This document shows positions 11,108 through 31,462 of a stretch of DNA of 33,192 nt, in pieces. Both the position numbers and the translations under genes were made by a program. The stretch comes from an uncultured Terriglobales bacterium (GTDB lineage: Bacteria; Acidobacteriota; Terriglobia; Terriglobales; Acidobacteriaceae), in the NCBI GenBank assembly GCA_955652845.1, contig CATPBY010000050.1, positions 1-33,192 of the forward strand, given 5' to 3'. The notes under the pieces are model-generated. The model was given only the letters and a program-made list of their open reading frames with translations. It had not been told where the DNA came from and ran no database searches. How positions within the stretch are numbered: position 1 is the stretch's first letter; each line of letters begins with the position of its first letter.

Positions 11108-12823
11108 GTGCTCGTCGAACTGCGGCTTGAAAACTACGTTGTGATCGACCACCTGGAGGTGGAGTTCGCCTCCGGATTGAATCTGCTGACCGGTGAGACT
11201 GGCGCGGGAAAATCCATCCTGATCGACGCTCTGGCTCTCCTTCTCGGCGACAAGGCCTCCGCGGAAGTAATTCGCGCGGGAGCCGAGCGAGCCATGATCT
11301 CGGCGGTCTTCGAAGCCGAGGCTGGCGCATCTGAAAGAAAGATCGCTCAAGTTCTGGAAGCCAATGGCATCGACTTGGAAGCCAACTCCATTATTTTGCG
11401 CCGCGAAATTGCAACTGGCGGCAAAGGCCGGGTTTTCGTAAACAACCAGCCAGCTACTGTGGCAGTGTTGCGTCAACTTGCGCCATATCTGGCGACCATC
11501 CATGCCCAGAACGCATCGCTCCTTTCTTTCGATGCGGCCGCACGTCTCAACCTGCTCGACGCCTTTGCGGGAAATGAAGTTGGCGGGACCACCGAGGCGT
11601 TTCTTCAGTGGAAAACGGTAGCGAATCGAATCGAAGAGTTGCAGCACAATGAACAGGACCGCCTGCGCTTGCTGGATCTGTGGACCTTCCAGAAGAATGA
11701 AATCGAGCAGCTCAAGCTGCAGCCCGGTGAAGATCACCACCTGGAAACACAAAAGCGCGTGTTGGCAAATGCAGAGAAGATTTACAGCTCCGCAATGAAC
11801 GCCTTCGACTTGCTTTACGAAGGCAACGCTTCCACCTCTGCATCATTGCGCCTGGCGCAAAAGCATATCGAAGAACTCGCCCGCTATGAGCCGAAGTTCC
11901 AGGATGCTTATTCGGCGCTCGAGACGGTTCGTATTAGCGTGGAGGATGTCGGCGCCAGTCTGCGCGATTATGCCGGCGGCATCGAAGCGTCGCCTGAGCG
12001 CCTGGCGGAGGTGGAGGATCGCCTGGCGGCCATCGACCGGCTCAAGCGCAAGTACGGTCCCACGCTGGGCGATGTAATTGGCCATAATGAAGAAGTGACC
12101 CGCAAGCTTTCCGAGATGGAAAATAAAGACGAAATTCTCCGCCGGCTGCATGCAGAGCTGGCGCAAGCCGCGGAAGGGTATCAGCGAGCGGCTCGTATGC
12201 TTTCGAAAAAGCGTTACGAGGCCGCGCGCAAATTGGAAAAATTAGTCGAAGCTGAAATCAACGATCTGGCGATGACTTCCAAGTTCAGCGTTGAAGTCAG
12301 TGGCAGTGATGAAGTAGGGAACTGGACGCCCTCGGGCTTCGACCAGGCGGTGTATATGATTTCCACCAATCCCGGCGAACCGCTGCGGCCACTGGAACAG
12401 ATCGCGTCCGGCGGGGAGTTGTCGCGGGTCATGCTGGCGCTGAAAGGCACCGTGGCGCGGGCGACCGCGAAGTCGCCAGCCAGATCGGCTGACGGTCGAG
12501 CATGCTCCGCCCAGCGCACCCTGATCTTCGACGAGATCGACACCGGAATCGGCGGGCGGGCGGCGGAAGCGGTAGGCAAAAAGTTAAAAAGCCTGTCCAG
12601 CGCTGACCAGGTAATTTGCGTGACCCATCTTCCGCAGATCGCCACCTTCGCTGACCATCACTATCTCATCGAAAAGAAGAACGCCGGCGGCCGCATGCGA
12701 ACTACAATTCGTCCAATCACTGGCCAGGAACGCACAGAGGAAATTGCTCGCATGCTTAGCGGCGCCAGGCTGACAGATACTTCGCGCAAGCATGCGGAGC
12801 AGATGCTGAAAACCAACGCGTAA
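11108..12823 (+). CDS. recN: DNA repair protein RecN (SMC-like ATPase)
   Basis: GTG at 11108 gives MLVELRLENYVVIDHLEV, a canonical RecN N-terminus; the track start 10976 is an extension. It has Walker A (GETGAGKS), a long coiled coil, the signature ASGGELSR and Walker B (LIFDEIDTGIGG). Confidence 0.9.
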   Translation: MLVELRLENYVVIDHLEVEFASGLNLLTGETGAGKSILIDALALLLGDKASAEVIRAGAERAMISAVFEAEAGASERKIAQVLEANGIDLEANSIILRREIATGGKGRVFVNNQPATVAVLRQLAPYLATIHAQNASLLSFDAAARLNLLDAFAGNEVGGTTEAFLQWKTVANRIEELQHNEQDRLRLLDLWTFQKNEIEQLKLQPGEDHHLETQKRVLANAEKIYSSAMNAFDLLYEGNASTSASLRLAQKHIEELARYEPKFQDAYSALETVRISVEDVGASLRDYAGGIEASPERLAEVEDRLAAIDRLKRKYGPTLGDVIGHNEEVTRKLSEMENKDEILRRLHAELAQAAEGYQRAARMLSKKRYEAARKLEKLVEAEINDLAMTSKFSVEVSGSDEVGNWTPSGFDQAVYMISTNPGEPLRPLEQIASGGELSRVMLALKGTVARATAKSPARSADGRACSAQRTLIFDEIDTGIGGRAAEAVGKKLKSLSSADQVICVTHLPQIATFADHHYLIEKKNAGGRMRTTIRPITGQERTEEIARMLSGARLTDTSRKHAEQMLKTNA

Positions 12824-13048
12824 AGCTCGGATAAGACATTGAGACCTGTTCCTGCAACCGTTGCAACTGGTCATCTGCGCCGGGGACGCCCCCGCCTCGC
12901 CTTGGCTGATGGTCCATTCACAGCCAAAATATCCCCAATCGATGCTAATCCTAGCCGTTTCTACGGCTTACGTTGACCTGGTGCGTACTTTTTAGATACC
13001 CTAGTTGTCAACACCCAACAGGAAACGTGTACCCTAGAAAGTAGACTC

Positions 13049-14041
13049 ATGCTAAGTAAAGACAGTCACCCCGCCGAACAGAAAACCTTGCTGTTATTGA
13101 AGCCTCGGGGCTTTTGCGCGGGCGTGGTGCGGGCCATTGACATTGTCCGCATCGCCCTGGAGGCCTTTGGGCCCCCGATCTATGTACGCAAGGAGATCGT
13201 TCACAACCGTTTCGTAGTTGAGGAATTGCAAGGCAAAGGCGCAATTTTCGTGGACAGCGTGGAAGAAGTCCCAAATGGGGAGCGGGTGATCTACAGTGCT
13301 CACGGTGTTTCACCGGAAGTGCGGGACGCCAGCCAGCATCGAGGATTACGGGTGATTGACGCTACCTGTCCCCTGGTCACAAAAGTTCATGTTGAGGCGG
13401 TAAAGTTCGCCAAGGAAGGTTATTCGCTGATCCTGATCGGGCACCGCGACCACGACGAAGTGATCGGAACGCTGGGCGAGGCACCGGTCGTCACACAGGT
13501 AGTGGGGTCGCCCGAGCAGGTAGAATCTTTGACCGTTGCGAATCCTGACCGCGTGGCCTACCTGACGCAGACGACTTTGAGTCTGGACGAAACCAAAGAC
13601 ATCATCGCGGCGTTGCGGCAGCGTTTTCCCAACATCAAGGGGCCGGCAGCGCAGGATATCTGCTATGCCACGGAAAACCGGCAGGTCGCGGTAAAACAAG
13701 TGGCTTCAGACGCAGATCTCCTGCTGGTCGTTGGATCGGATAACAGTTCCAATTCCAACCGTCTGGTCGAAGTAGCCCGAAATTTGGGCACGGGTTCACA
13801 TCTGATCGACAGCTTCCGCAATATCCAGGCGGAGTGGCTTGAGGGCGTGAAGACTATCGCTTTGACGGCGGGCGCTTCCGCGCCGGAATGTCTGGTGGAA
13901 GAAGTAGTAGAGTTTCTGGGTACCAGAGGCTTCAACAATGTGAAGGAAGTCGAAGTAATGCCTGAGAACGTGCGGTTTGGTCTGCCTCCGGAGATTGTGG
14001 AAGCTATTGCCAGCGCGCCCACCGGGGCAGTCGCGGAGTAA
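13049..14041 (+). CDS. ispH: 4-hydroxy-3-methylbut-2-enyl diphosphate reductase (terminal MEP-pathway enzyme)
   Basis: It carries PRGFCAGVVRAIDIV, SAHGVSP, ATCPLVTKVH and SSNSNRL motifs (three conserved Cys regions). The size is right at 330 aa. Confidence 0.9.
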   Translation: MLSKDSHPAEQKTLLLLKPRGFCAGVVRAIDIVRIALEAFGPPIYVRKEIVHNRFVVEELQGKGAIFVDSVEEVPNGERVIYSAHGVSPEVRDASQHRGLRVIDATCPLVTKVHVEAVKFAKEGYSLILIGHRDHDEVIGTLGEAPVVTQVVGSPEQVESLTVANPDRVAYLTQTTLSLDETKDIIAALRQRFPNIKGPAAQDICYATENRQVAVKQVASDADLLLVVGSDNSSNSNRLVEVARNLGTGSHLIDSFRNIQAEWLEGVKTIALTAGASAPECLVEEVVEFLGTRGFNNVKEVEVMPENVRFGLPPEIVEAIASAPTGAVAE

Positions 14042-14049
14042 ATCAGGGT

Positions 14050-16020
14050 ATGGAAGAGAGCTCCCCCACCCATTCGGCATCGGCGTTGCCGCCAATGCGT
14101 TTCGGGAAAATCGACGATCTGGCCAGCCGGGTAGCGGCGGCGGTTGACGGCGCCCGCAACTACCTGTTCGGCGGCCAGCACGAAGAAGGCTACTGGTGCG
14201 GCGAACTGGAAGCCGATACTTCGCTTGAATCGGATTACATCGTCCTGCACACACTGCTGGGCACCGGCAACTTGGAACGCTTCCAGAGAGCGGCGCGTTA
14301 CATCCTTCAACATCAGAATGAGGATGGCGGATGGAGTATTTATGCCGGCGGCCCATCGAATATCAGTGTCTCGGTCAAAGCATATTTCGGATTGAAGCTC
14401 GCCGGATATCCGGCGGACCATCCGGCCCTGCTTCGCGCCCGCCAAAAGATTCTGGCAATGGGCGGCGTCACCGAAGTCAATACTTTTACCAAGATATACC
14501 TTTGTTTCTTTGGGCAATATGACTATGACGCGGTCCCGGCCATTCCGCCGGAAATCGTCCTGTTCCCCAACTGGTTCTGGTTCAATATCTACGAAATTTC
14601 GTCATGGTCGCGGGCAATCCTGGTGCCACTGTCAATCGCCTACGCCAAGAAGCCATTCAAGAAGATTCCGGATGAGATGGGCGTGGACGAGTTATTCGTG
14701 GGCGGTCGAGACAAGTCCCGCATGCACTTGCACTGGTCGAAGAAGCTGTTCTCCTGGCGCAATTTTTTCCTATTGCTGGACCGCTTGACTCACTGGTTTG
14801 AGCGCGTCCATATCCGGCCGTTGCGTTCGATCGCGCTGAAAAACGCGGAGAAGTGGATGCTGGAGCGTTTCGAAATGAGTGATGGATTGGGGGCCATTTA
14901 TCCCGCCATGATGAACGCCATCATTGCGCTTCGGTGTCTCGGATATTCGGTGGACGATCCGCAGTTCATCCGCGCCATGGATGAGTTCGAGAAGCTGGGC
15001 ATCGAAGAAGGCGAAACGTTCCGCATGCAACCCTGCACATCGCCGGTGTGGGACGCCGCCTACGCGCTCTTTGCTCTGGGTCACAGCGGCGTGCCGGCGA
15101 ACGATGCGCGCCTGGTCAAGTGCGCCGATTGGATTCTGCAGAAGCAGGTCCGGAATATCGGTGATTGGAAGGTAAAAAATCCCGGAGGCCAGCCCGGCGG
15201 ATGGTATTTCGAATTCAACAACGAGTTTTATCCTGACGTGGACGACAGCGCCATGGTTTGCCTGGCGTTGAGCCAGGTGGAGCATCCTAACGGGCGTTAC
15301 CAGCGCGAATCGGTGCAGCGTGCGATTGATTGGATTCTTTCGATGCAGTGCCGCAACGGAGGCTGGGCTTCGTTCGACAAAGACAATGACCGCATGGTGT
15401 TTCAACACATCCCATTCGCAGACCATAACGCCATGCTCGATCCCGCGACGGTTGACATCACTGGCCGCATTCTGGAGATGCTCGCGACCTACGGTTACGA
15501 CCGGAATCATCCGGCGGTGAAGAAGGCGATAAAGTTTATCCGCGATGAGCAGGAACCCGATGGCTCTTGGTTTGGACGCTGGGGCGTGAACTATATTTAC
15601 GGCACCATGCTGGTGTTGCGCGGTCTTGAGGCGATGGGCGTAGATCATCACGAACCTTACGTGCAGCAGGCGGCGGAATGGCTGCGCATGATGCAGAATC
15701 CCGATGGCGGCTGGGGAGAGACGTGCGGGTCATATGACGATCCTAATACCAGGGGTGTGGGCCCAAGCACCCCATCACAGACCGCCTGGGCGGTGATGGG
15801 GCTGCTGGCTGCGAACGACACGCGAAGCGATTGTGTGGTTCGAGGCATCGCCTATCTGCTGAGATCACAGAAAAAAGATGGATCGTGGGACGAGCCCTGT
15901 TACACCGGCACGGGTTTTCCCCGCGTGTTCTATCTCAAATATCACCTGTACTGCCAATATTTCCCGCTGATCGCGCTGACCACCTGCAAGAAAGTCATGG
16001 CGGAGAAAACCAGCGATTAG
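14050..16020 (+). CDS. shc: squalene-hopene cyclase
   Basis: It has multiple QW repeats (QNEDGGWS, QCRNGGWA, EQEPDGSWFGRWG, QNPDGGWGE, QKKDGSWD). The DxDD catalytic motif is DVDDSAM. It starts 8 nt after the ispH stop. Confidence 0.95.
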   Translation: MEESSPTHSASALPPMRFGKIDDLASRVAAAVDGARNYLFGGQHEEGYWCGELEADTSLESDYIVLHTLLGTGNLERFQRAARYILQHQNEDGGWSIYAGGPSNISVSVKAYFGLKLAGYPADHPALLRARQKILAMGGVTEVNTFTKIYLCFFGQYDYDAVPAIPPEIVLFPNWFWFNIYEISSWSRAILVPLSIAYAKKPFKKIPDEMGVDELFVGGRDKSRMHLHWSKKLFSWRNFFLLLDRLTHWFERVHIRPLRSIALKNAEKWMLERFEMSDGLGAIYPAMMNAIIALRCLGYSVDDPQFIRAMDEFEKLGIEEGETFRMQPCTSPVWDAAYALFALGHSGVPANDARLVKCADWILQKQVRNIGDWKVKNPGGQPGGWYFEFNNEFYPDVDDSAMVCLALSQVEHPNGRYQRESVQRAIDWILSMQCRNGGWASFDKDNDRMVFQHIPFADHNAMLDPATVDITGRILEMLATYGYDRNHPAVKKAIKFIRDEQEPDGSWFGRWGVNYIYGTMLVLRGLEAMGVDHHEPYVQQAAEWLRMMQNPDGGWGETCGSYDDPNTRGVGPSTPSQTAWAVMGLLAANDTRSDCVVRGIAYLLRSQKKDGSWDEPCYTGTGFPRVFYLKYHLYCQYFPLIALTTCKKVMAEKTSD

Positions 16021-16026
16021 CATTGC

Positions 16027-17013
16027 ATGTTAGCTTTCGTTACCGGCGCGACCGGATTCGTGGGCAGCCATGTAGCGCGCGCGCTTGCAGACTATGGCGC
16101 TGACCTGCGGCTGTTGCTTCGCTCCAGCAGCAATCCGAAAAACATTGAAGGCCTGAAGGCGGAGCGGGTGGTTGGCGACTTGTGTGATGCCGCGTCGCTG
16201 GAGAAGGGACTGGCCGGGTGTGATGCGGTCTTCCATGTGGCCGCCGACTATCGGCTGTGGGTGCGGGATCCGGATCAGATGTATCGCGCCAATGTTGAGG
16301 GCACCCGGGCCATCCTTGGAGCCGCGCTCAAAAATGGCGTGCGGCGTGTGGTGTATACCTCCAGCGTCGCGACCATGGGCTTCACGTCGAACGGTCACCC
16401 GGCAGATGAAACTTCCCCTGTTTCGCTGGAGAAGATGATCGGCCCTTACAAGCGATCGAAGTTCCTGGCGGAAAAACTGGCGGTCGAAGCGGGACGCAGC
16501 GGGATGGACGTCGTCGTGGTCAATCCCAGCACGCCGGTCGGCGAGCGGGACATCAAGCCCACGCCCACGGGGCGGATTATCGTTGACTTTCTCAAGAAGA
16601 AGTTTCCCGCCTACGTCGATACCGGTTTGAACCTGGTGGATGTGAGCGAGTGCGCTCGTGGTCATATCGCGGCAATGGAAAAGGGACGGAGCGGCGAGCG
16701 CTACATTCTGGGCGGAGAGAACCTCACACTGAAGCGGATTCTGGACAAGCTGGCCGTGATCACCGGGCTGCCGTCACCGAGACTCAGAGTTCCGTACGCG
16801 ATTGCGCTGGCCACCGGGGTGGTGGACGAGATGTTCACGGGCCACATTCTCAAGCGAGAACCACGCGCAACCATTGACGCAGTGCGCATGGGCAGGAAGA
16901 AGATGTTTGTTTCTTCCGCCAAAGCCGCACGCGAACTGGGATGGGAAGGCGGTCCAGTGGATAATGCTCTGCAGCGCGCCGTCGAGTGGTTCACGTCGAA
17001 TGGGTATGTGTGA
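16027..17013 (+). CDS. hpnA: hopanoid-associated NAD-dependent sugar epimerase/dehydratase-family protein HpnA
   Basis: It has a Rossmann motif (TGATGFVGS), the HVAADYRLW and ANVEGT stretches that closely match my memory of HpnA, and a catalytic YxxxK (YKRSK). It starts 6 nt after the shc stop. Confidence 0.85.
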   Translation: MLAFVTGATGFVGSHVARALADYGADLRLLLRSSSNPKNIEGLKAERVVGDLCDAASLEKGLAGCDAVFHVAADYRLWVRDPDQMYRANVEGTRAILGAALKNGVRRVVYTSSVATMGFTSNGHPADETSPVSLEKMIGPYKRSKFLAEKLAVEAGRSGMDVVVVNPSTPVGERDIKPTPTGRIIVDFLKKKFPAYVDTGLNLVDVSECARGHIAAMEKGRSGERYILGGENLTLKRILDKLAVITGLPSPRLRVPYAIALATGVVDEMFTGHILKREPRATIDAVRMGRKKMFVSSAKAARELGWEGGPVDNALQRAVEWFTSNGYV

Positions 17014-17741
17014 TGTTGTCGGTTTCAGGCAAAGTCGCGATCGTGGCTGCCCTGGAGCGGGAGGTGCGGCCTTTGATCAGGAACTGGCAGTCATGCGAAC
17101 GGAAACATGAAGGCCGCAAGTTCAAATTTTTCGAGAATCAATGGGCGGTAGCGGTTTGCGGTGGGATGGGGCGGGAGCCAGCACGGCGGGCTACTGAGGC
17201 TGTAATTGCGCTTTATCACCCTTCGCTGGTCATCTCTGCAGGATTTGCGGGCGCGCTGGATAGCACTATGGCAGTAGGTGATATTCACACACCACGGTTT
17301 GTCATCGATGCTGGCGATGGGAGCCGTACCGATACCGGAACCGGCACGGGCTCGTTGGTAAGCGCTGATGCCGTGGTGCGCCCTGAGCAAAAGGCAAAGT
17401 TAGCCAGGGCCTACGGCGCGCAGGCAGTGGACATGGAAGCGGCGGCCGTGGCCCGTGGTGCGCAGGCTCGCGAAATAAAGTTTAAAGCGATTAAAGCTAT
17501 CTCGGATGACACCAAGTTTGTCATGACTCCAATGGAACGGTTTGTCAGTTGGGATGGGAGATTTCGTGGAGGCAGATTCATGGTCTTTGCGCTTCTTCGT
17601 CCGTGGCTGTGGGCAAACATCGTGGGTTTAGCGAGAAATAGTTCCTTCGCCGCACGAGCACTTTGCCGCGCGCTAGAGCAGTGCAGTCACGGAGAAAGCA
17701 ACCATGCGATTGAACGATTGCAGGCCGTACCCGGGAAATAG
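17013..17741 (+). CDS. hpnG: hopanoid-associated nucleosidase/phosphorylase HpnG (adenosylhopane to ribosylhopane)
   Basis: ATG at 17013 overlaps the hpnA TGA by 1 nt and gives MLSVSGKVAIVAAL. It has PNP/UDP-phosphorylase-family features (VDMEAAAVARGA, IKAISD). It sits directly after shc-hpnA. Confidence 0.8.
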   Translation: MLSVSGKVAIVAALEREVRPLIRNWQSCERKHEGRKFKFFENQWAVAVCGGMGREPARRATEAVIALYHPSLVISAGFAGALDSTMAVGDIHTPRFVIDAGDGSRTDTGTGTGSLVSADAVVRPEQKAKLARAYGAQAVDMEAAAVARGAQAREIKFKAIKAISDDTKFVMTPMERFVSWDGRFRGGRFMVFALLRPWLWANIVGLARNSSFAARALCRALEQCSHGESNHAIERLQAVPGK

Positions 17742-17758
17742 CGCTGGAACGGGTATAA

Positions 17759-17790
17759 CGAAAGAAGCGCTTGACGAAAGAAGGGCTTGA
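17759..17790. repeat. tandem 16-bp direct repeat (15/16 identical) in the hpnG-to-MDR intergenic region
   Basis: CGAAAGAAGCGCTTGA (17759-17774) is followed immediately by CGAAAGAAGGGCTTGA (17775-17790). A purine-rich AAAGGAAACG follows. Confidence 0.8.
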
Positions 17791-17849
17791 AAAGGAAACG
17801 AGCGGTTTAGTGCCCCTTGATTTGTGAGGCGACCAGACTGACTCACGCT

Positions 17850-18974
17850 ATGTCGATTGCGCGACAATTCAACATCGAAGACAAGCGACTGGCCGTTCCA
17901 GCCACTATGCTTGCTGCGGTATATCGCAGGCCAGGTGAAGTTTGCATGGAGACCGTGCCTGTTCCCCGCATTAGTGCGGGCGAGTTGCTGGTCCGGGTCC
18001 ACACCTGCGGCATTTGCGGCACGGACTTAAAAAAGATTGCCACGGGATCGCATTCTGCACCTCGAGTCTTCGGCCACGAAACTTCGGGCGTGGTGGCCGC
18101 GGTCGGAGAGGGCGGACACGAATTCAACCCGGGTGACCGCGTGGTGGTCTTCCATCACGTCCCGTGCGGTGAGTGTTACTACTGCCGCCACAAGACTTTC
18201 GCCCGGTGTGAAACTTACAAGAAGGTAGGTTGCACGGCAGGCTTCGAACCCTCGGGAGGAGGCTTTGCAGAATACGTCCGCGTGATGGACTGGATTGTGC
18301 GGCGCGGGACAGTGCGTATTCCAGACCAGGTTTCATTCGAACAGGCCTGCTTTGTCGAGCCAGTCAATACCTGTATGAAGGGCATCCAGCGATTGCACAT
18401 CGAGCCGGGCGAAACAGTCCTGGTGGTCGGCCAGGGTCCTATCGGCATCTTATTGAGTGTATTGGCGAAACGAGGCGGGGCAAAGGTAATAACTTCCGAT
18501 TTGTATCAGCAGAGGCTTACAATATCAAGAGGGTTCGGACTAGACAATAATATCGACGCTTCACGTTCTGACGTAATAACGGCAGTGCGTCAGCGCACCG
18601 AGGGGCGAGGAGTTGACGCGGCTATTCTGGCGGTTGGGGGGAATGCCCTCATCCAGAAAGCGGTCGATTCGGTACGTCCGGGAGGAAGGGTGTTGTTATT
18701 TGCGCAGACCGTACGCGGTGAAGCTGTAATTGATCCGGCCGCGATCTGCATGGACGAGAAAACATTGTTGGGGTCCTATAGCGCTTCCGTCGAGCTGCAG
18801 GACGAATCGGTGCGATTTGTGATGAATCGTGAAATGGATCTGGAGCGTCTCATCAGCCACCGCTTCCCGTTAACGGACAGCGTGGAAGCCTTGAACCTGG
18901 CTGCCCATCCTCAGCCCGATTCCATGAAAATCGTGATTCAGCCGGGCAGCATGTGGGAAGGAAGTACAGAGTGA
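17850..18974 (+). CDS. zinc-dependent medium-chain dehydrogenase/reductase (polyol/threonine-dehydrogenase-like), copy 1
   Basis: Catalytic Zn ligands are present (CGICGTDLKK, GHETSGVV), as are a structural-Zn loop (CGECYYCRHKTFARC) and a GxGxxG motif (VVGQGPIGILL). The start is uncertain. ATG at 17850 is the longest ATG start; ATG at 17907 (MLAAVYRRPGEV) fits family N-termini best; the track start 17817 is TTG. Confidence 0.85.
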   Translation: MSIARQFNIEDKRLAVPATMLAAVYRRPGEVCMETVPVPRISAGELLVRVHTCGICGTDLKKIATGSHSAPRVFGHETSGVVAAVGEGGHEFNPGDRVVVFHHVPCGECYYCRHKTFARCETYKKVGCTAGFEPSGGGFAEYVRVMDWIVRRGTVRIPDQVSFEQACFVEPVNTCMKGIQRLHIEPGETVLVVGQGPIGILLSVLAKRGGAKVITSDLYQQRLTISRGFGLDNNIDASRSDVITAVRQRTEGRGVDAAILAVGGNALIQKAVDSVRPGGRVLLFAQTVRGEAVIDPAAICMDEKTLLGSYSASVELQDESVRFVMNREMDLERLISHRFPLTDSVEALNLAAHPQPDSMKIVIQPGSMWEGSTE

Positions 18975-18982
18975 ACGGAAAG

Positions 18983-20020
18983 ATGACAGCTGCAGTCCTC
19001 TACGGCAAAGAGGACATAAAAATTGAACGAGTACCGATCCCGCGCGTGGGACACGGCGAAGTGCTGGTCAAAGTGCAGGTCGCATTGACCTGCGGCACCG
19101 ATCTGAAAGTTTATCAACGCGGTTATCACGCCCGGATGATTGTCCCCCCTGCTCTGTTTGGCCATGAACTGGCTGGAGTCATCGAAGAAGTAGGATCGGG
19201 CGTACGTGGCTTCAAGAAGGGTATGCGGGTGGTGGCGTTGAACTCCGCTCCCTGCCAAATGTGCTTCTATTGCTCGAAACACCAGGAGAACCTCTGCGAA
19301 GACCTGTTATTCAATAACGGCGCCTACGCAGAGTACATACGGATTCCACGACGAATTGTAGAGACTAACATGCTGGCTGTGCCGCCGGATGTCAGTTACG
19401 AAGAAGCGGCGATGGTCGAGCCGCTGGCCTGCGTGCTTCGCGGGCTGCACGAAACCCGCGTGGAGATTGGGGATACGGTTACCGTGATCGGCGGCGGGCC
19501 GATTGGACTGATGTTCGTGCAGGTTGCCAAGGCCATCGGGTGCAACGTGATCTCAGTAGTCAAACGTGATTCGCAGGTGGCAGCCGCCAAGCGTATGGGC
19601 GCCCACGAAGTTGTACAGATCACACAGGTGAAGGATCCGGTTGAAGCTGTGCGCATGCTTTCCCCGGACAAGCGCGGCGGAGACGTTGTGATCGAAGCAG
19701 TGGGCCGTCCGGAAGCCTGGGAGTGGGCGATTGACATGGTGCGCAAAGGTGGCACGGTCAATTTTTTTGGCGGATGCGCCAGCGGGACCAAGGTGCAGCT
19801 CGATACCAACCGGCTGCATTATTCGGAAGTTACCTTGAAAGCCACGTTCCACCACACGCCGGAAACTGTGCGCAAAGCCTTTGGTCTTATCGCCGAGAAG
19901 AAAATTCGTTCGACCGACTACATTACTGGCGAAGCGCCGCTTTCGCGTCTGCAGCATGTTCTCCGTCACATGCTCAATCGTAACGGCGATATTAAGACAG
20001 CCATTATTCCTGGACACTGA
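18983..20020 (+). CDS. zinc-dependent medium-chain dehydrogenase/reductase (polyol/threonine-dehydrogenase-like), copy 2
   Basis: Catalytic Zn ligands are present (LTCGTDLKV, GHELAGVI), as are a structural-Zn loop (CQMCFYCSKHQENLC) and a GxGxxG motif (VIGGGPIGLMF). ATG at 18983 (MTAAVLYGKEDI) fits the family. GTG at 18971 overlaps the copy-1 stop (GTGA) and follows AGGAAG, so it is an alternative start. Confidence 0.85.
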   Translation: MTAAVLYGKEDIKIERVPIPRVGHGEVLVKVQVALTCGTDLKVYQRGYHARMIVPPALFGHELAGVIEEVGSGVRGFKKGMRVVALNSAPCQMCFYCSKHQENLCEDLLFNNGAYAEYIRIPRRIVETNMLAVPPDVSYEEAAMVEPLACVLRGLHETRVEIGDTVTVIGGGPIGLMFVQVAKAIGCNVISVVKRDSQVAAAKRMGAHEVVQITQVKDPVEAVRMLSPDKRGGDVVIEAVGRPEAWEWAIDMVRKGGTVNFFGGCASGTKVQLDTNRLHYSEVTLKATFHHTPETVRKAFGLIAEKKIRSTDYITGEAPLSRLQHVLRHMLNRNGDIKTAIIPGH

Positions 20021-20062
20021 GCTGGAATCGAAGCTCCGCCATTTGCCCGGGCGATAAAATCC

Positions 20063-21013
20063 ATGCCATCTGCCGTCACCAACCGCGTCAGTCCTACCCC
20101 CATGTCTCCTGCGTTGACGGGATGGAGCCGTTTGCCGGCGGAATACGCGATTCCGGATCAGGCACCCACGCTAGTGGAGGCCCAGAGCTACTGCCGGCGT
20201 TTGGCTCGCACCCACTACGAAAACTTCTCGGTCGCTACCTGGTTTCTGCCTGCCGGGCTGCGCCAGCATTTCTACAATGTGTATGCCTATTGCAGGATTT
20301 CGGATGATCTCAGCGACGAGGTGGGCGATCCGCGCGCATCTCTTCAGTTGCTCGATCAATGGGAGGAAGAGCTCGACGCTTGTTATCAGGGCCGCCCGCG
20401 TCATCCGGTATTCGTGGCACTGGCGGAAACAGTGGGCAAGTTCGATATTCCCAGGCAGCCGTTCGCCGATTTGTTGAAAGCATTCCGCCAGGATCAAGCC
20501 GTTACCCGCTATCCGACTTTCGATGATCTGCTGGGCTACTGTCGTTACTCGGCGAATCCGGTCGGCCATCTCGTGCTCTATTTGTGCGGTTATCGTGACC
20601 GGGAACGGCAAGCGCTTTCCAATTTCACCTGCACCGCACTCCAGCTGGCAAACTTTTGGCAGGATGTGAGCCTGGATCATGCCAAGGGCAGGATTTATCT
20701 TCCGCTGGAGGATCTGCAACGGTATGGCGTCAGCGAGGACGCCATAGCATCTGCGCGCAACACTGAAGCTTTTTGCGGGGTGATGCGCTTTCAGGTGCAA
20801 CGGGCCCGAGAGTGGTTCCAACAGGGCTTGCCATTGATTGGATTGGTGGATCGCGAATTAGCCATCGATATTGAATTGTTCAGCCGCGGTGGGCTGGAGA
20901 TTTTGAACGCGATCGAGCGCGAGCGGTATGCGGTGCTCGGGCGCAGACCATCGATTTCAAAACTCCGCAAACTGGCGCTCCTGGCCCGGGCGGCGCTGGG
21001 AAAGCTACTATGA
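20063..21013 (+). CDS. hpnC: squalene-synthase-family enzyme HpnC (presqualene diphosphate to hydroxysqualene)
   Basis: It shows the trans-isoprenyl diphosphate synthase head-to-head fold pattern (HYENFSVATWFLP, YAYCRISDDLSDE, NFWQDVSLD). It is first in the canonical hpnC-hpnD-hpnE order. Confidence 0.85.
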   Translation: MPSAVTNRVSPTPMSPALTGWSRLPAEYAIPDQAPTLVEAQSYCRRLARTHYENFSVATWFLPAGLRQHFYNVYAYCRISDDLSDEVGDPRASLQLLDQWEEELDACYQGRPRHPVFVALAETVGKFDIPRQPFADLLKAFRQDQAVTRYPTFDDLLGYCRYSANPVGHLVLYLCGYRDRERQALSNFTCTALQLANFWQDVSLDHAKGRIYLPLEDLQRYGVSEDAIASARNTEAFCGVMRFQVQRAREWFQQGLPLIGLVDRELAIDIELFSRGGLEILNAIERERYAVLGRRPSISKLRKLALLARAALGKLL

Positions 21014-21951
21014 GTGTGGCCGTGCAGCAGGCTCCAGCGCCCTTCGCCCCGACCCAATCGCAGCTGGCGGTGGCCTATTCAGTTTGCCGCAGCATCACGC
21101 GTTCGACAGCAAAAAACTTTTACTACGCTTTTCTGGCGCTTCCGCGGCCGAAACGGCAGGCTCTATGCGCGGTATATGCCTTCATGCGCCGATGTGATGA
21201 CATTGCCGACAATACCAGGATGCCATCAGGCGAAAGACGCCAACGGTTGGAGGAATGGCTTGACGCCTTCCATCGTACGCAATACGGGGAGCCTACAGAT
21301 GATCCCGTGCTGTTGGCATTGAGCGATGCGCAACTCCGCTACCAGATCCCGGGAGAATTGATGGACCAGCTTGCCTACGGCACGGCCATGGACCTTCCGG
21401 AGGATGCGCGGCAGTCAGGAAGGGAATCACGTGAACCCAGGGTGCGCTACGCCACGTTCGACGATCTTCGGGTGTACTGCTACCGGGTAGCTTCGGTGGT
21501 GGGCTTAGTTTGCATCCGGATATTCGGCTACCACGATTCGAAAGCAGAGTCCTTGGCTGAAAATTGTGGGTTGGCCTTCCAGCTTACCAACATCATTCGC
21601 GATGTAAAAGAGGACGCGGCGATGGGCCGGGTTTATCTTCCAGAGGAAGATTTAAGAAAGTTCGACATTGCAGCCGGCGAGCTCCGCAATCCCGCAGCGC
21701 CGACGCGGCTGCGATGGCTTCTGGCTGCGGAAGCTGAGCGCGCGCGGCAGTACTATCGGTCTGGCGATCAGTTGATTCCTCTCGTTGACGAAGACAGCCA
21801 GCCCGCCCTGTGGGTGCTGATCACGATCTATCGGCGGTTGCTGGAAAAAATTGGCAGCCGTCATTATGACGTTTTCAGCGATAGGGTGACTCTCTCGGTC
21901 CGCGAAAAACTCGTCATCCTTGGAAAGGGCTTTTTAAAACGCCTTACCTGA
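21010..21951 (+). CDS. hpnD: presqualene diphosphate synthase HpnD
   Basis: It has phytoene/squalene-synthase motifs (NFYYAFLALP, YAFMRRCDDIADN, NIIRDVKEDAAMGRVYLP). Its ATGA overlaps the hpnC stop. Confidence 0.85.
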   Translation: MSVAVQQAPAPFAPTQSQLAVAYSVCRSITRSTAKNFYYAFLALPRPKRQALCAVYAFMRRCDDIADNTRMPSGERRQRLEEWLDAFHRTQYGEPTDDPVLLALSDAQLRYQIPGELMDQLAYGTAMDLPEDARQSGRESREPRVRYATFDDLRVYCYRVASVVGLVCIRIFGYHDSKAESLAENCGLAFQLTNIIRDVKEDAAMGRVYLPEEDLRKFDIAAGELRNPAAPTRLRWLLAAEAERARQYYRSGDQLIPLVDEDSQPALWVLITIYRRLLEKIGSRHYDVFSDRVTLSVREKLVILGKGFLKRLT

Positions 21952-23381
21952 TGACGGAGCGCTGGACACAATCACCCAGGGTAGGCGTAGTTGGCGGCGG
22001 TTTGGCGGGACTTGCTGCCGGTTGTACTTTAGCCGATAGCGGATTCCGCGTGACATTGTTCGAACGCCGCCCATACCTGGGCGGACGCGCATCGTCATAT
22101 CAGTTGCCGGCGACAGGCGAGGTGGTAGACAACTGCCAGCATGTTATGCTTGGTTGCTGCACCAATCTGATCGACTTCTATCGCCGCATCGGCGTGCAGG
22201 ACAAGATTCGCTGGTACGACCAGATGACATTTCTGGAGCCCGGGGGGCGGACGTCGGTGATTGGGCCATCGTCGCTGCCAGCGCCGTTCCACACCGCACC
22301 AGCGTTCTTGCGTGCCGCCTGTCTGAACCTCCGCGACAAAATGGGCATTGCTTCGGCAATGGCGGCGCTTGCTCCCACGACGCCAAACGACAATGGCGAA
22401 TCGTTTCTCAGTTGGCTGCGTCGTCATGCGCAAACAAACCGCGCGATCGAACGGTTCTGGAAGACCGTGCTGGTAAGCGCTCTCAATGAAGATCTCGACC
22501 GCGTGTCCGTGCCTTGCGCCGCCCAGGTCATACGAGAGTCTTTCCTGAAGTCGCCCCCGGCGGGTCGTCTTGGCATCCCTACGGTGCCCCTGACCGAGCT
22601 GTACAGCGTGGCAGCAGACTACATCGCTGCCCGAGGTGGAGAAGTACGACTCCGCTCCGGTGTGGAAACATTTAGAGCGGAGTTCGCCAGCTTAAAGCTT
22701 TCGGGGGGAGAGCGAGAACAGAGTTTTGATTTCGTTGTCTTGGCAGTGCCCTTCGACGTGTTGTCCAGGATGTTGCCAGAAACCTCGGCAGCAGAGCCAC
22801 TGCGGCAGAATTTAGGCCGCCTGGAGACTTCGCCCATCACCGGCATTCACCTATGGTTCGATCGTCAGATTACCGGCCTCGATCACGCCGTATTGCTTGA
22901 TCGCACGATTCAGTGGATGTTCCACAAGTCGAGACTGCTGGAACGGGCCTCATTGAGCAAAGACGGCAAACCAGCGCAGGCCGGAGACGGCAGTTACGTG
23001 GAGCTTGTGGTCAGTGCTTCGAAGACTCTGGTGGACAAATCACGGGCGGAAATCGTGGAGATGGCGCTGGGCGAACTGCGTGAGTTTTTTCCTCAAGCGC
23101 GCGCCGCGAATCTGCTGAAGTCCACGGTGATCAAAGAAGTTCATGCTACGTATTCACCACGGCCGGGGGTCGAGCCTCTGCGCCCGCCGCCGGAAACTGT
23201 CTGGCCGCGAGTTTTTTTCGCCGGGGACTGGACAGCTACCGGCTGGCCGGCCACCATGGAAGGCGCCGTCCGCAGTGGCTACACCGCGGCCCAATGCGTG
23301 GCTCGGGTTGCCGGCCTGCGCGACGCCGCGTTTCTGGTGCCGGACCTGCCCGCAGCCGGATTCATGCGATTGTTTGGATAG
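21951..23381 (+). CDS. hpnE: FAD-dependent hydroxysqualene dehydroxylase HpnE (amine-oxidase fold)
   Basis: It has an N-terminal dinucleotide-binding motif (VGVVGGGLAGLAAG...LFERRPYLGGR) and a C-terminal FFAGDW motif. It overlaps the hpnD stop by 1 nt (TGATG). Confidence 0.85.
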   Translation: MTERWTQSPRVGVVGGGLAGLAAGCTLADSGFRVTLFERRPYLGGRASSYQLPATGEVVDNCQHVMLGCCTNLIDFYRRIGVQDKIRWYDQMTFLEPGGRTSVIGPSSLPAPFHTAPAFLRAACLNLRDKMGIASAMAALAPTTPNDNGESFLSWLRRHAQTNRAIERFWKTVLVSALNEDLDRVSVPCAAQVIRESFLKSPPAGRLGIPTVPLTELYSVAADYIAARGGEVRLRSGVETFRAEFASLKLSGGEREQSFDFVVLAVPFDVLSRMLPETSAAEPLRQNLGRLETSPITGIHLWFDRQITGLDHAVLLDRTIQWMFHKSRLLERASLSKDGKPAQAGDGSYVELVVSASKTLVDKSRAEIVEMALGELREFFPQARAANLLKSTVIKEVHATYSPRPGVEPLRPPPETVWPRVFFAGDWTATGWPATMEGAVRSGYTAAQCVARVAGLRDAAFLVPDLPAAGFMRLFG

Positions 23382-23396
23382 TGTGCCGATACACAA

Positions 23397-23777
23397 CTAC
23401 GCCGCCAGCAGCACCACCCCGCCGGCAACCAGCAAGGCAGCGATCCAGCGCCGATGGTCAACTCGTTCATGCAGGAAAATTTTTGCCGCAACCGCGTTGG
23501 CGATGAAGGTCAGCGCCGCCGCAGCTGGTCCTACCACGCTGACATCCGCCCAGGAGAGGCCGACCAGGAGGCTATAGAAAGCAAAAGTCATTGCCAGGAC
23601 TCCCAGCAGGAAACTGGGATTGCTTAAAACTCTTCCCACGACAATTAGCGCACCGCGCCGACGCCGGAGATCGCCGACATCACCTACATGCTTCATGGCA
23701 CGGGAGAGCAACACGTCGCCGGTCGTCGAAGCCATAACAATGGCTGCGATCGCAACCCAGGCGTGCGCCTGCTTCAT
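23397..23777 (-). CDS. half-size DMT-superfamily (single EamA-like domain) membrane protein, subunit B
   Basis: The 126-aa protein is nearly all hydrophobic helices. It is paralogous to the upstream gene (shared GD-LLSR-MK, LSWAD, FLHE-V---RW motifs). Its ATG overlaps the upstream stop (ATGA at 23774-23777). Confidence 0.75.
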   Translation of the reverse strand: MKQAHAWVAIAAIVMASTTGDVLLSRAMKHVGDVGDLRRRRGALIVVGRVLSNPSFLLGVLAMTFAFYSLLVGLSWADVSVVGPAAAALTFIANAVAAKIFLHERVDHRRWIAALLVAGGVVLLAA

Positions 23778-24214
23778 GGATTACTCCGGGTAGCAATAGG
23801 GTCAGCCACATAACCCTTCGGCTTGCTGTGCGGGATTTTCTTAGTCAACTCCGGCCCACGGGTCACAAACCCCACCCCGGCCGAGATCAACAAAATGCCG
23901 AGCCAGCGCGTCGTGCTGACGTCCTCATGCAAGAGGAACTTGGCAATCAGCGCCAACAACACATATCCCAGCGAAGTAGCGGGAAGGACATAAGTTAGAT
24001 CAGCCCAGGACAGGGCAGTCATGTAGGCGGCGAAAAAACCCAGCAGAAAGATAATTCCCAGAGCAACCCAGGGATTGAGGATTGCGAGAATGACATTCGA
24101 CAGATGTTGCGGGGAAACGCTGCCTAACTGCTTCATGCCTCGGGAGAGCAGCGAATCGCCCACCGCAGCAAACACGGTCACTGCGGCCAGCACCAGATAC
24201 TTGCGAAAAGTCAC
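23774..24214 (-). CDS. half-size DMT-superfamily (single EamA-like domain) membrane protein, subunit A
   Basis: The 146-aa protein starts at GTG 24214, preceded by AGGGA with a 7-nt spacer. That start is 12 nt after the stop of the radical-SAM gene. The motifs match its partner. It also has a hydrophilic C-terminal tail (TRGPELTKKIPHSKPKGYVADPIATRSNP). Confidence 0.75.
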   Translation of the reverse strand: MTFRKYLVLAAVTVFAAVGDSLLSRGMKQLGSVSPQHLSNVILAILNPWVALGIIFLLGFFAAYMTALSWADLTYVLPATSLGYVLLALIAKFLLHEDVSTTRWLGILLISAGVGFVTRGPELTKKIPHSKPKGYVADPIATRSNP

Positions 24215-24226
24215 ACTTGTCTGTCC

Positions 24227-25705
24227 CTAAGCCTTGACGGGTTCCGCCGCCGCCGTGGAAGCGTCCTTATCGCGCTTGTCCTTGACCCACTTGTGGCGCA
24301 TGGCACGTACTTTCAGGAAGGTCTTGGCCTCTTTGTAGAGACGCTTGCGATCGTCGCTATGGAACGCGGCCTTTTTCAGAATGCGGAATACAGCCTTGGG
24401 CCTGAAGTAGTATTCATCGTAGAAGCGGTGCACGGCGTCCAGGATCTCTTCCGCCGGCAGGCCAGGATACTGGATGTGAGCGAGCTGATGGCCGCCTTCA
24501 TCCACCATTATGCTGTCTGCCACAATGAATCCATTCTTCATCGCATAATCGTAAAGTTCGGTGCCAGGATAAGCGTGCGCCACCGAAACCTGAATGGTCT
24601 CCACATCCAGTTCCTTGGCAAACGCGATGGTGTTGTTAATAGTCTCGCGAGTTTCTCCCGGCAACCCCATGATGAAATCGCCGTGAACCACCAGCCCCAG
24701 CTTATGGCAATCCTTTGTGAACTGGCGGGCGCGCTCGATGGTCGCGCCCTTCTTGATGTTCTTCAGGATCTGCTGGTCCCCGGACTCGTAGCCCACGATC
24801 AAAAGGCGGCAACCAGCTTCCTTCATGGCCTTGAGAGTTTCAAAATCCGTGGTAACACGCGAAGTGCAGGACCAGGTGAGCTTCAGTGGCTTCAGCTTAG
24901 CGCACAGTTCGACCGTGCGTGCTTTCTGAATGTTAAAGGTGTCATCGTCAAAAAAGAATTCTCTGACGTAGGGCCAGTAATCCTTGGCTTTGGCCATTTC
25001 CCGGGCCACGTCATCGGTCGAGCGCTTGCGCCAGGCATGGCCGCTGGTGGTTTGCGGCCACAGGCAGAAGGTACACTGCGCCGGGCAACCGCGCGTCGTA
25101 TACAGCGACACATAGGGATAAAGCAGAAAAGGCACGTTGTAGCGCTTCGGATCCAGGTCCCGCAAATAGACATCGGTCACGTGCGGAAGAGCGTCGAGGT
25201 CTTCGATCTGCGGCCGATCGGGGTTGTGCACGACTTTGCCGCTCTTTAAGTAAGAGACGCCAAGAATCTGATCGAGCGGTTTGCCCTGCGCGAACTCAAC
25301 CACGGAATAGTCGAATTCTTTACGGCAGATGAAGTCGATGGCCTGGCCATCCCGCAGAGTTCGCTCCGGAAGTACAGTGACGTGCGGCCCGACGAAAGCA
25401 ATCTTGATGCTGGGGTTGGCGTCCTTAATCTTCTGAGCTAACCGGATATCTCCGGGAAACCCCGGGGTGCTGGTGTAGAGCACCAGGAATTCATAATCGC
25501 GAGCGATCTTGATGGTATCTTCCGCCGTAACGTAATGCGGAGGGGCGTCCAGCAAGCGGGCTCCCTCCAGCATTCCAGCCGGATAGGCGAGCCAGACCGG
25601 ATACCAGTAAGACTCGATTTCACGGGTAGCAGGCCAACGTGACCCGGCGCCTCCGTCGAAGTTCTCAAACGAGGGGGGGTTCAGAAACAATGTTTTTAAA
25701 GGCAT
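24227..25705 (-). CDS. hpnJ: B12-binding-domain radical SAM enzyme, HpnJ-like (hopanoid-associated)
   Basis: The radical-SAM cluster motif is CPAQCTFC (CxxxCxxC). An N-terminal Rossmann-like cobalamin-domain region is present. The N-terminus LKTLFLNPPSFENFDGGAGSRWPATREIESYWYPVWLA resembles HpnJ family members as I remember them. It lies beside the hpn operon. The radical-SAM/B12 class call is about 0.9; the HpnJ subfamily call is less certain. Confidence 0.6.
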   Translation of the reverse strand: MPLKTLFLNPPSFENFDGGAGSRWPATREIESYWYPVWLAYPAGMLEGARLLDAPPHYVTAEDTIKIARDYEFLVLYTSTPGFPGDIRLAQKIKDANPSIKIAFVGPHVTVLPERTLRDGQAIDFICRKEFDYSVVEFAQGKPLDQILGVSYLKSGKVVHNPDRPQIEDLDALPHVTDVYLRDLDPKRYNVPFLLYPYVSLYTTRGCPAQCTFCLWPQTTSGHAWRKRSTDDVAREMAKAKDYWPYVREFFFDDDTFNIQKARTVELCAKLKPLKLTWSCTSRVTTDFETLKAMKEAGCRLLIVGYESGDQQILKNIKKGATIERARQFTKDCHKLGLVVHGDFIMGLPGETRETINNTIAFAKELDVETIQVSVAHAYPGTELYDYAMKNGFIVADSIMVDEGGHQLAHIQYPGLPAEEILDAVHRFYDEYYFRPKAVFRILKKAAFHSDDRKRLYKEAKTFLKVRAMRHKWVKDKRDKDASTAAAEPVKA

Positions 25706-29699: not shown

Positions 29700-30110
29700 A
29701 TGCCAAGGAGCCCGCGCTACCGTCCCGAACACGCCCAGGCCGGTCTCGACGCCCAATTTCCCGAAATCGAAACCTGGCAGAACCAGTTTCCAGGTTATGA
29801 AATTGTTGTGGATGACCCTGAGTTCACATCCGTCTGTCCTAAGACGGGGCTGCCGGATTTCGGCTCGCTTACCATTCGCTATATGCCCAATAAGCTCTGC
29901 CTGGAACTGAAATCACTGAAAGAATACCTGCAGTCTTATCGTAATCTCGGCATTTTTCAGGAGAACATTGTGAACCGCGTGCTGGATGACGTGGTCCGCT
30001 GGACCCGTCCGGTCTGGGCGGAGGTAAAAGGTGAGTTCCGACCGCGTGGCGGGATATCCACCGTGGTAACGGCGCGCTGGCCGCGCCCGAAGTCGGGTAA
30101 AAGAAAATAG
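29700..30110 (+). CDS. queF: NADPH-dependent 7-cyano-7-deazaguanine (preQ0) reductase, unimodular type
   Basis: It has the catalytic Cys motif PEFTSVCPKTGLPDF and the QueF motif ELKSLKEYL. The size is right at 136 aa. Confidence 0.9.
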   Translation: MPRSPRYRPEHAQAGLDAQFPEIETWQNQFPGYEIVVDDPEFTSVCPKTGLPDFGSLTIRYMPNKLCLELKSLKEYLQSYRNLGIFQENIVNRVLDDVVRWTRPVWAEVKGEFRPRGGISTVVTARWPRPKSGKRK

Positions 30111-31460: not shown

Positions 31461-31462
31461 GG

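Follow-up and report, generated by a model that had tools for sequence, protein, structure and literature searches.

Hopanoids rank among the major membrane lipids of bacteria and are important biomarkers in geology. In cultivated Acidobacteria, two genes of unknown function, ug1 and ug2, have been described in the company of hopanoid (hpn) genes, an association on which the authors themselves remarked: ug1 follows hpnA-hpnG in 'cluster C', and ug2, which encodes a Zn-binding alcohol dehydrogenase of ~350 aa, precedes hpnC-D-E in 'cluster A' of subdivision 1 Acidobacteria (Sinninghe Damsté et al. 2017, Front Microbiol 8:968, PMC5462960). The counterparts of both genes stand back to back in the stretch of DNA analyzed here, 33,192 nt of a contig from an uncultured Terriglobales bacterium (the window), in which ispH, shc, hpnA, an hpnG-like gene, the two genes, hpnC, hpnD and hpnE form one co-directional run. 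They are called MDR1 (ug1) and MDR2 (ug2) in the following, after the medium-chain dehydrogenase/reductase (MDR) superfamily, of which they are uncharacterized new members. While the gene association as such has already been published, the present analysis adds that the pair is conserved outside Acidobacteria, that its members divide into an NAD-type and an NADP-type enzyme, and that a cassette of the pair with hpnC and hpnD persists across phyla. Together, these data lead us to propose, tentatively, that MDR1 and MDR2 constitute a lineage-restricted accessory NAD+/NADPH redox couple of the squalene-hopanoid pathway.

One step of this pathway that lacks an assigned enzyme is the conversion of ribosylhopane into bacteriohopanetetrol (BHT). 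As the preliminary description of this locus had stated, no ribosylhopane reductase has been assigned, and this is still the case in the literature of 2025-2026 (PMC12583986), in which the step has also been termed 'nonenzymatic' (PMC13459092). A ribosylhopane reductase activity was obtained in a cell-free system of Methylobacterium organophilum, with no protein identified according to the summary given in a later paper (Bodlenner et al. 2015, via PMC12583986). Of the known genes, hpnA has been proposed for this step (PMC5462960), and the same source cites work in which B. cenocepacia did not need hpnA for BHT (Schmerk 2015, via PMC5462960). HpnA (TIGR03466, 'hopanoid-associated sugar epimerase') is, like the MDR pair, a nicotinamide-dependent oxidoreductase encoded in hpn clusters, often directly upstream of MDR1 or of hpnG-MDR1, but it has the fold of a short-chain dehydrogenase/reductase (SDR) instead of an MDR and is much more widespread among hopanoid producers. 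It is a rival candidate for the ribosylhopane reductase.

The most persistent neighbor of the MDR pair is the hpnCD(E) squalene-synthesis module. Neighbors were counted at the 109 loci that have 1.3 kb or more of sequence on each side, with distant lineages reached by a second profile search, a metagenome scan and single look-ups. MDR2 is directly followed by hpnC or hpnD in 92 of these loci, MDR1 is directly preceded by hpnG or hpnA in 77, and an hpn gene is directly adjacent in 97, over MDR1 identities of 44-79% and several rearrangements. Specifically, Terriglobales-like loci (>57% MDR1 identity) have both neighbors in 61 cases, only hpnC/D downstream in 15, only hpnG/hpnA upstream in 3 and neither in 1, and the corresponding numbers for more distant loci (<=57% MDR1 identity) are 12, 4, 1 and 12. 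The two MDR genes themselves are adjacent in 145 of 150 loci with room for both, down to ~41-44% identity. This link to squalene and hopanoid genes is too persistent for chance or passive hitch-hiking, since neither rearrangements nor a fused hpnC-hpnD gene have broken it, and it has been passed on, by transfer or inheritance, through at least two phyla. Conserved linkage, which the preliminary description had put forward as a check on its proposal, thus extends far beyond chance.

All but one of the best 80 loci in a scan of GTDB species representatives (MDR1 identity 58-79%) are labelled Acidobacteriota/Terriglobales; the exception, L013 (74% identity), bears the label Ca. Eisenbacteria and may be mis-binned. 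MDR2 follows MDR1 in every one of the 80 that has downstream sequence, with hpnC-hpnD-hpnE next in nearly all, and in the 57-69% identity class hpnG directly precedes MDR1 at 52 of 54 loci, as it does in SD2-type loci. In a frequent variant, the hpnG-hpnA-shc-ispH block is inverted beyond recN, and the pair stays with hpnCDE, not with hpnG (L010, L015, L018 and the metagenomic loci L130, L140, L145, L151, L164). The position after hpnG had initially been read as reflecting pathway order, an argument that these loci take away: the stable feature is adjacency to hpnC/hpnD. Wherever the cassette faces recN divergently (L117, L142, L145, L146, L156, L158, L161, L164), a motif of the form ~TTTGAAACGAA-N(12-16)-CATCATCTAAAAT is found ~10-40 nt upstream of MDR1. 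It looks promoter-like, which suggests that MDR1-MDR2-hpnCDE is a transcription unit of its own, and the MDR pair is probably co-transcribed with hpnCDE.

More distant lineages retain the cassette in rearranged surroundings. The order in the SD2-type Acidobacteria locus L137 is shc-hpnA-hpnG-MDR1-MDR2-hpnCD(fused)-hpnE, in which the fused hpnC-hpnD gene (656 aa, 12151-14121) directly follows the MDR pair and corresponds to the hpnCD fusion described in subdivision 2 Acidobacteria. In L167 (7830-15106), the order is ispH-hpnA-MDR1-MDR2, followed by a single HpnD-like SQS_PSY gene and shc; the same variant occurs in L108 and L135, and no hpnC, hpnE or hpnG was found in the available flanks of these three loci (<=10 kb per side). 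MDR1-MDR2-hpnC-hpnD-hpnE is found in L083, L166 and the Chthonomonadales locus L170, where the available ~5-10 kb of flank contain neither shc nor hpnA nor hpnG, and MDR1-MDR2-hpnC-hpnD in L171, from an AT-rich lineage at 44% identity; L170 and L171 are both among the loci with a directly adjacent hpn gene. The junction of the two MDR genes shows overlaps of 4-16 nt or gaps of at most 45 nt in L083, L084, L137, L165-L168, L170 and L171.

Both proteins belong to the Zn-dependent MDR superfamily. MDR1 matches ADH_N (PF08240) with 89 bits and ADH_zinc_N (PF00107) with 68 bits, and MDR2 matches the same domains with 86 and 92.5 bits, all above the gathering cutoffs. The motifs of MDR1 (CGICGTDLK, FGHE, VEPVN, the cysteines C106/C109/C112/C120 and GQGPIG) have their counterparts in MDR2 (TCGTDLK, FGHE, VEPLA, C91/C94/C97/C105 and GGGPIG), and all of them are unchanged or almost unchanged across the orthologues. 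Among 163 MDR1 and 136 MDR2 orthologues extracted from the collected loci, the catalytic ligands C56, H76, E77 and E170 of MDR1, its four structural cysteines and GQGPIG are invariant; C37, H61, E62 and E146 of MDR2 and its four structural cysteines are invariant or near-invariant (C37 in 135/136), as are two of the three glycines of GGGPIG (G175 in 134/136). The initial impression that both enzymes are catalytically intact, with Zn ligands, four-Cys loop and GxGxxG in place, is thereby borne out. Their description as paralogous is accurate at the level of the superfamily but not for a close pair: the two share 31% identity, and MDR1 has closer-scoring relatives than MDR2 in at least 150 clusters of other database proteins, so that they represent two separate MDR subfamilies and not recent tandem duplicates. 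MDR2 is the best-conserved protein of the cluster, with 84-94% identity within Terriglobales versus 72-79% for MDR1 and ~84% for the squalene-hopene cyclase.

Across the whole family, MDR1 and MDR2 differ consistently in the cofactor-discriminating position, with which strand beta-2 ends. Asp217 of MDR1, an NAD-type residue, is invariant in the 163 orthologues, whereas V/G193-K/R194-R/H195 of MDR2 aligns, over the 136 orthologues, with Ala199-Arg200 of the NADP-dependent ketose reductase 1e3j. MDR1 is predicted to be NAD-dependent and MDR2 to be NADP(H)-dependent. The preliminary description had assumed an NAD(P)H-dependent reductase in general terms; of the two proteins, only MDR2 looks NADP(H)-dependent.

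Compared with ketose reductase (1e3j), sorbitol dehydrogenase (1pl6) and L-threonine 3-dehydrogenase (2dfv), both proteins have the same fold, the Cys-His-Glu(-Glu) Zn site, the four-Cys Zn site and GxGxxG. MDR2, furthermore, shares with sorbitol dehydrogenase and ketose reductase the length of the loop between CGTD and GHE and has an NADP-type site like that of 1e3j. The nearest solved structures are a Thermus alcohol dehydrogenase (ADH), 1e3j, threonine dehydrogenases and sorbitol dehydrogenase (E = 1e-32 to 1e-40), and the match to 1pl6 (E = 9e-32 for MDR1, 1e-33 for MDR2) does not exceed those to threonine dehydrogenase or plain ADHs. Among the NCBIfam equivalogs, neither protein reaches any curated cutoff. 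MDR1 and MDR2 score 154/159 and 168/164 bits against L-threonine 3-dehydrogenase (TIGR00692/NF003808; cutoffs 458/380), and 172 and 147 bits against scyllo-inosose 3-dehydrogenase IolM (NF041097; cutoff 450). The two proteins belong to the polyol/threonine-dehydrogenase-like branch of the Zn-MDRs without being orthologous to a characterized enzyme; orthology to a known sugar or amino-acid dehydrogenase, which had been named as a point against a hopanoid role, did not emerge, given best NCBIfam scores of 147-172 bits versus 450-458. The context likewise sets the pair apart from the polyol, ketose and threonine dehydrogenase branch, as its neighbors are hpn genes of lipid biosynthesis and not the sugar uptake or kinase genes of sugar catabolism. 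The label 'L-iditol 2-dehydrogenase' that homologues carry at JGI is not established, in view of the low NCBIfam scores and the unexceptional match to 1pl6.

Against this background of observed domain content, conserved catalytic residues, tight gene coupling and synteny, the available data are compatible with a model in which two distinct, intact Zn-MDRs would be expressed as a tightly coupled pair together with squalene and hopanoid genes. That an NAD-type enzyme is constantly paired with an NADP-type one suggests an oxidize-then-reduce couple or two separate steps. MDR1, with its NAD-type Asp, would oxidize a carbinol with NAD+, and MDR2, with its NADP-type basic motif and its likeness to ketose reductase, would reduce a carbonyl with NADPH. 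The ribose-derived C5 polyol side chain is the favored substrate, again with some reserve, because of the family's likeness to enzymes of polyols and ketoses and the pentitol-like end of the BHT side chain. One option is that oxidation at C-34 would be followed by re-reduction, resulting in inverted stereochemistry or a keto intermediate; another is that MDR2 would supply an NADPH-dependent reduction that yields the tetrol. The direction of each reaction and the substrate are inferred, as are the cofactor preferences. A second redox step on the side chain had already been mentioned in the preliminary description as an alternative, and it fits the data better than the single-reductase reading preferred there.

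Enzyme couples of this design are known from other pathways. IolG/IolW of B. subtilis, which convert myo- into scyllo-inositol, and HpsO/HpsP, which act on 2,3-dihydroxypropane-1-sulfonate (DHPS), are NAD+/NADPH couples that invert a carbinol through a ketone. The MDR pair resembles them in that co-encoded dehydrogenases have opposite cofactor preference, one oxidizing and the other re-reducing. In contrast to the MDR pair, however, these enzymes belong to the GFO/IDH/MocA or SDR families and act on soluble substrates, and stereoinversion by the MDR pair is a proposal.

A more committed version of the model, in which the pair is a dedicated NAD+/NADPH couple acting on a lipid of the hopanoid pathway, is possible but calls for more doubt than the general one. 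If the lipid is the side chain, MDR2 would form BHT in Acidobacteria, as the NADPH-dependent enzyme, and MDR1 would add an oxidation, for example at C-34, that leads to a BHT stereoisomer or a keto-bacteriohopanepolyol; if it is hydroxysqualene, the couple would invert or salvage this compound for HpnE. On the favored side-chain reading, MDR2, as the NADPH-dependent reducing partner, would be the only reasonable candidate for ribosylhopane reduction.

Several observations weigh against the proposed redox couple with its side-chain substrate. The strongest linkage is to squalene synthesis and not to the side-chain genes hpnG/hpnH, and hopanoids are membrane lipids, while polyol-type MDRs are soluble enzymes for small polar substrates. 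The cofactor preferences are read from motifs. Twelve distant loci have the pair without a nearby hpn gene, in flanks of ~1.5 to 10 kb (among them L084, a P0126-like clade, Planctomycetota, marine and GGDEF contigs), which implies that the pair has, or once had, a function that needs no hpn neighbors. In L124 (7766-11053), hpnA-hpnG-MDR1 is followed by opposite-strand efflux genes, without MDR2 or hpnCDE; this is the one clear split of the pair, and MDR1 stays with hpnG. The MDR1 family, moreover, is narrow: a search of 1.84 billion representative proteins gave only ~12 clusters (full-length, at the 50% identity level) with >=40% identity to MDR1. It is also not general among BHT producers: a survey of 48 alphaproteobacterial hpn clusters contains no further candidate genes and no MDR pair (PMC12583986), and ug2 is absent from C. 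thermophilum, a BHT producer with hpnCDE (PMC5462960). Given this narrow distribution and these absences, the pair cannot be a general BHT reductase, though it may be a lineage-specific one.

Among the alternatives, a role outside hopanoid synthesis ranks first, though it is itself unlikely, followed by a strict ribosylhopane reductase and then a role at hydroxysqualene. The first of these holds that the pair is a general-metabolism module for a soluble polyol, sugar or amino alcohol that became fixed beside hpnC in an ancestor and has since spread with the cassette. This would account for the standalone pairs, which adjoin genes as unrelated as queF with a proline dehydrogenase-like gene (the P0126-like clade), a pyrroloquinoline quinone (PQQ) propeller gene and a GGDEF gene, and it would agree with a distant relative that is fused to a sugar-1-phosphate nucleotidyltransferase and with a cyanobacterium in which a lone MDR1-like gene, without partner, lies near polysaccharide export genes. 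Passive hitch-hiking, however, rarely outlasts a divergence such as that over which 97 of the 109 loci keep their hpn adjacency despite several rearrangements, and the MDR reading frames overlap or closely abut hpnC.

An observation that touches the standalone pairs is the recurrence of queF (preQ1 synthase) near MDR1 and MDR2, at 29700-30110 of the window, 8607-9083 of L095, 9372-9767 of L165 and 5417-5764 of L170. It lies directly upstream in the standalone clade, 3 kb off in Chthonomonadales and 10 kb off in the window, and, as these contexts are unrelated, may be left over from an ancestral gene order or be coincidental.

The second alternative, improbable as it now looks, is the original assignment in its strict form, in which one or both MDRs reduce the open-chain C-35 aldehyde of ribosylhopane to BHT and the order of hpnG and the MDR genes mirrors the pathway. 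It would fill a step without an assigned enzyme, and the direct upstream position of hpnG in nearly all loci of the 57-69% identity class and in SD2-type loci, together with the retention of MDR1 beside hpnA-hpnG in L124, is in its favor. The activity in M. organophilum is said to depend on NADPH, which would match the NADP-type motif of MDR2. Yet the pair stays with hpnCDE where the hpnG block is inverted and is found with hpnCD(E) alone in L083, L166, L170 and L171, a single reduction does not need two enzymes of opposite cofactor type, and HpnA is placed equally well as a candidate. The normal reaction of polyol-type MDRs interconverts a secondary carbinol, usually at C2, and a ketone; reduction of an aldose aldehyde is unusual for them. 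The absence of the pair from alphaproteobacterial clusters, that of ug2 from C. thermophilum and the pairs away from hpn genes add to these points, so that the assignment survives as a possibility for MDR2, with a distribution too narrow for more.

The weakest alternative, by which the pair acts on a hydroxylated intermediate or by-product from HpnC/HpnD, for example inverting or salvaging hydroxysqualene via a ketone (NAD+-linked oxidation, then NADPH-linked reduction) and feeding it to HpnE, draws on the unit that persists across lineages, MDR1-MDR2-hpnC-hpnD(-hpnE), on its MDR1/MDR2 and MDR2/hpnC junctions (overlaps or short gaps, the largest 57 nt), on the promoter-like motif upstream of MDR1 where the cassette stands alone and on the NAD/NADP pair as a classic stereoinversion design for a secondary alcohol, but is the least probable of the three, because MDR1 and MDR2 resemble dehydrogenases of small polar polyols and not terpenol or cinnamyl-type ADHs, L163 (the pair) and L124 (MDR1 alone) sit with hpnA-hpnG and without hpnCD, C. 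thermophilum has hpnCDE without ug2 (PMC5462960), and HpnCDE of Z. mobilis and R. palustris yielded squalene in E. coli without MDR partners, as that paper cites the work (Pan 2015, via PMC5462960).

If a dedicated couple acting on a hopanoid-pathway lipid holds in either version, hopanoid biosynthesis would gain its first assigned MDR enzymes, and a gap in the pathway that dates from 2010-2015 would be closed. The two genes bear both on the ribosylhopane-to-BHT enzyme and on the origin of BHT stereoisomers that serve as biomarkers, and, as two cloneable genes with a predicted division of labor (NAD-linked oxidation, NADPH-linked reduction), they make the BHT question testable. They lie within the hopanoid cluster of the Terriglobales, a dominant group of soil bacteria, and the presence of the MDR1-MDR2-hpnC-hpnD cassette in at least two phyla is a robust association that hints at an unrecognized accessory step beside the three-enzyme squalene pathway.

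The features of the locus in the window are collected in Table 1.

Table 1. Features of the squalene-hopanoid locus in the 33,192-nt window
Feature	Position	Strand	Basis or detail
ispH	13049-14041	+	TIGR01507, 785 bits
shc (squalene-hopene cyclase)	14050-16020	+	NCBIfam scan
hpnA, SDR	16027-17013	+	TIGR03466, 503 bits vs cutoff 368
hpnG-like nucleosidase/phosphorylase	16986-17741	+	TIGR03468 best NCBIfam match; PNP_UDP_1 domain
Tandem 15-mer GAAAGAAG[C/G]GCTTGA, two copies, 16-nt period	17760-17790	+	hpnG-MDR1 spacer
MDR1 (ug1), Zn-dependent MDR dehydrogenase, 374 aa, predicted NAD	17850-18974	+	domains, Zn ligands
MDR1/MDR2 junction	18971-18985	+	GTGA start/stop overlap, or 8-nt spacer before ATG
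MDR2 (ug2), Zn-dependent MDR dehydrogenase, 345 aa, predicted NADP(H)	18983-20020	+	domains, Zn ligands
hpnC	20063-21013	+	NCBIfam scan
hpnD	21010-21951	+	NCBIfam scan
hpnE	21951-23381	+	NCBIfam scan

The gene upstream of the pair, which had been called hpnG, is correctly placed but only HpnG-like, with 88 bits against TIGR03468, below the cutoff of 187; the hpnG homologue of the SD2-type locus L137 reaches 130 bits, and acidobacterial HpnG forms a divergent branch of its family. Between the end of this gene and the ATG of MDR1 at 17850 lies a spacer of 108 nt. It holds the tandem repeat (two matches versus 0 expected by chance), which is not conserved at the other Terriglobales loci compared and may be a strain-specific regulatory site. 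The open reading frame of MDR1 opens at TTG 17817, with ATG 17850 and ATG 17907 as further possible starts, and its start codon is uncertain because residues 1-19 are poorly conserved and distant homologues start at the equivalent of Met20. The stop codon of MDR1 (TGA, 18972-18974) is followed after 8 nt by MDR2 if translation of the latter starts at ATG 18983, or overlaps it by 4 nt (GTGA) if it starts at GTG 18971; a further in-frame GTG is located at 18953. Exactly 42 nt separate the end of MDR2 from the ATG of hpnC, and these junctions, as first described, are exact on re-reading. An Rfam scan of the window gave no match, and in 12800-24300 a promoter consensus scan found 0 promoters and a terminator scan 16 terminator-like matches versus 12.3 expected, none of them in intergenic gaps.

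Apparent gene fusions involving the pair were also considered as leads. The 586-aa protein P0003, an MDR1+MDR2 'fusion', results from frameshifts in a fragmented long-read assembly and is an artefact, as nearly every gene of the locus on its 3.9-Mb contig (L001) is fragmented by frameshifts. P0231 and P0124 carry no hpn domain and result from read-through or N-terminal extension. P0148, from an AT-rich organism, is a genuine 602-aa fusion of a sugar-1-phosphate nucleotidyltransferase with an MDR and suggests that some relatives act on sugar or polyol phosphates bound for nucleotide activation; it was set aside as evidence for a functional link, since its dehydrogenase part is only 37% identical to MDR1. 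A tblastn search with MDR1 and MDR2 against 72,556 plasmids found neither the pair nor any hpn context; its matches were generic MDRs at <=36% identity and one MDR2-like gene at 46% in Rhodococcus.

Further genes of the window may relate to hopanoid lipids. Two EamA-type half-transporter genes (126 and 146 aa) on the minus strand at 23397-24214 adjoin hpnJ (24227-25705), and in Terriglobales loci this gene pair always occurs with hpnJ and a gene for an outer-membrane efflux protein. Their size and pairing recall the lipid-sugar flippase ArnE/ArnF, and by this analogy they may flip a hopanoid glycolipid. At 30219-32638, a gene for a major facilitator superfamily (MFS) transporter precedes a GT2 glycosyltransferase gene by 2 nt; the product of the latter matches HpnB best (170 bits, below the cutoff of 379) and HpnI far less well (35 bits).

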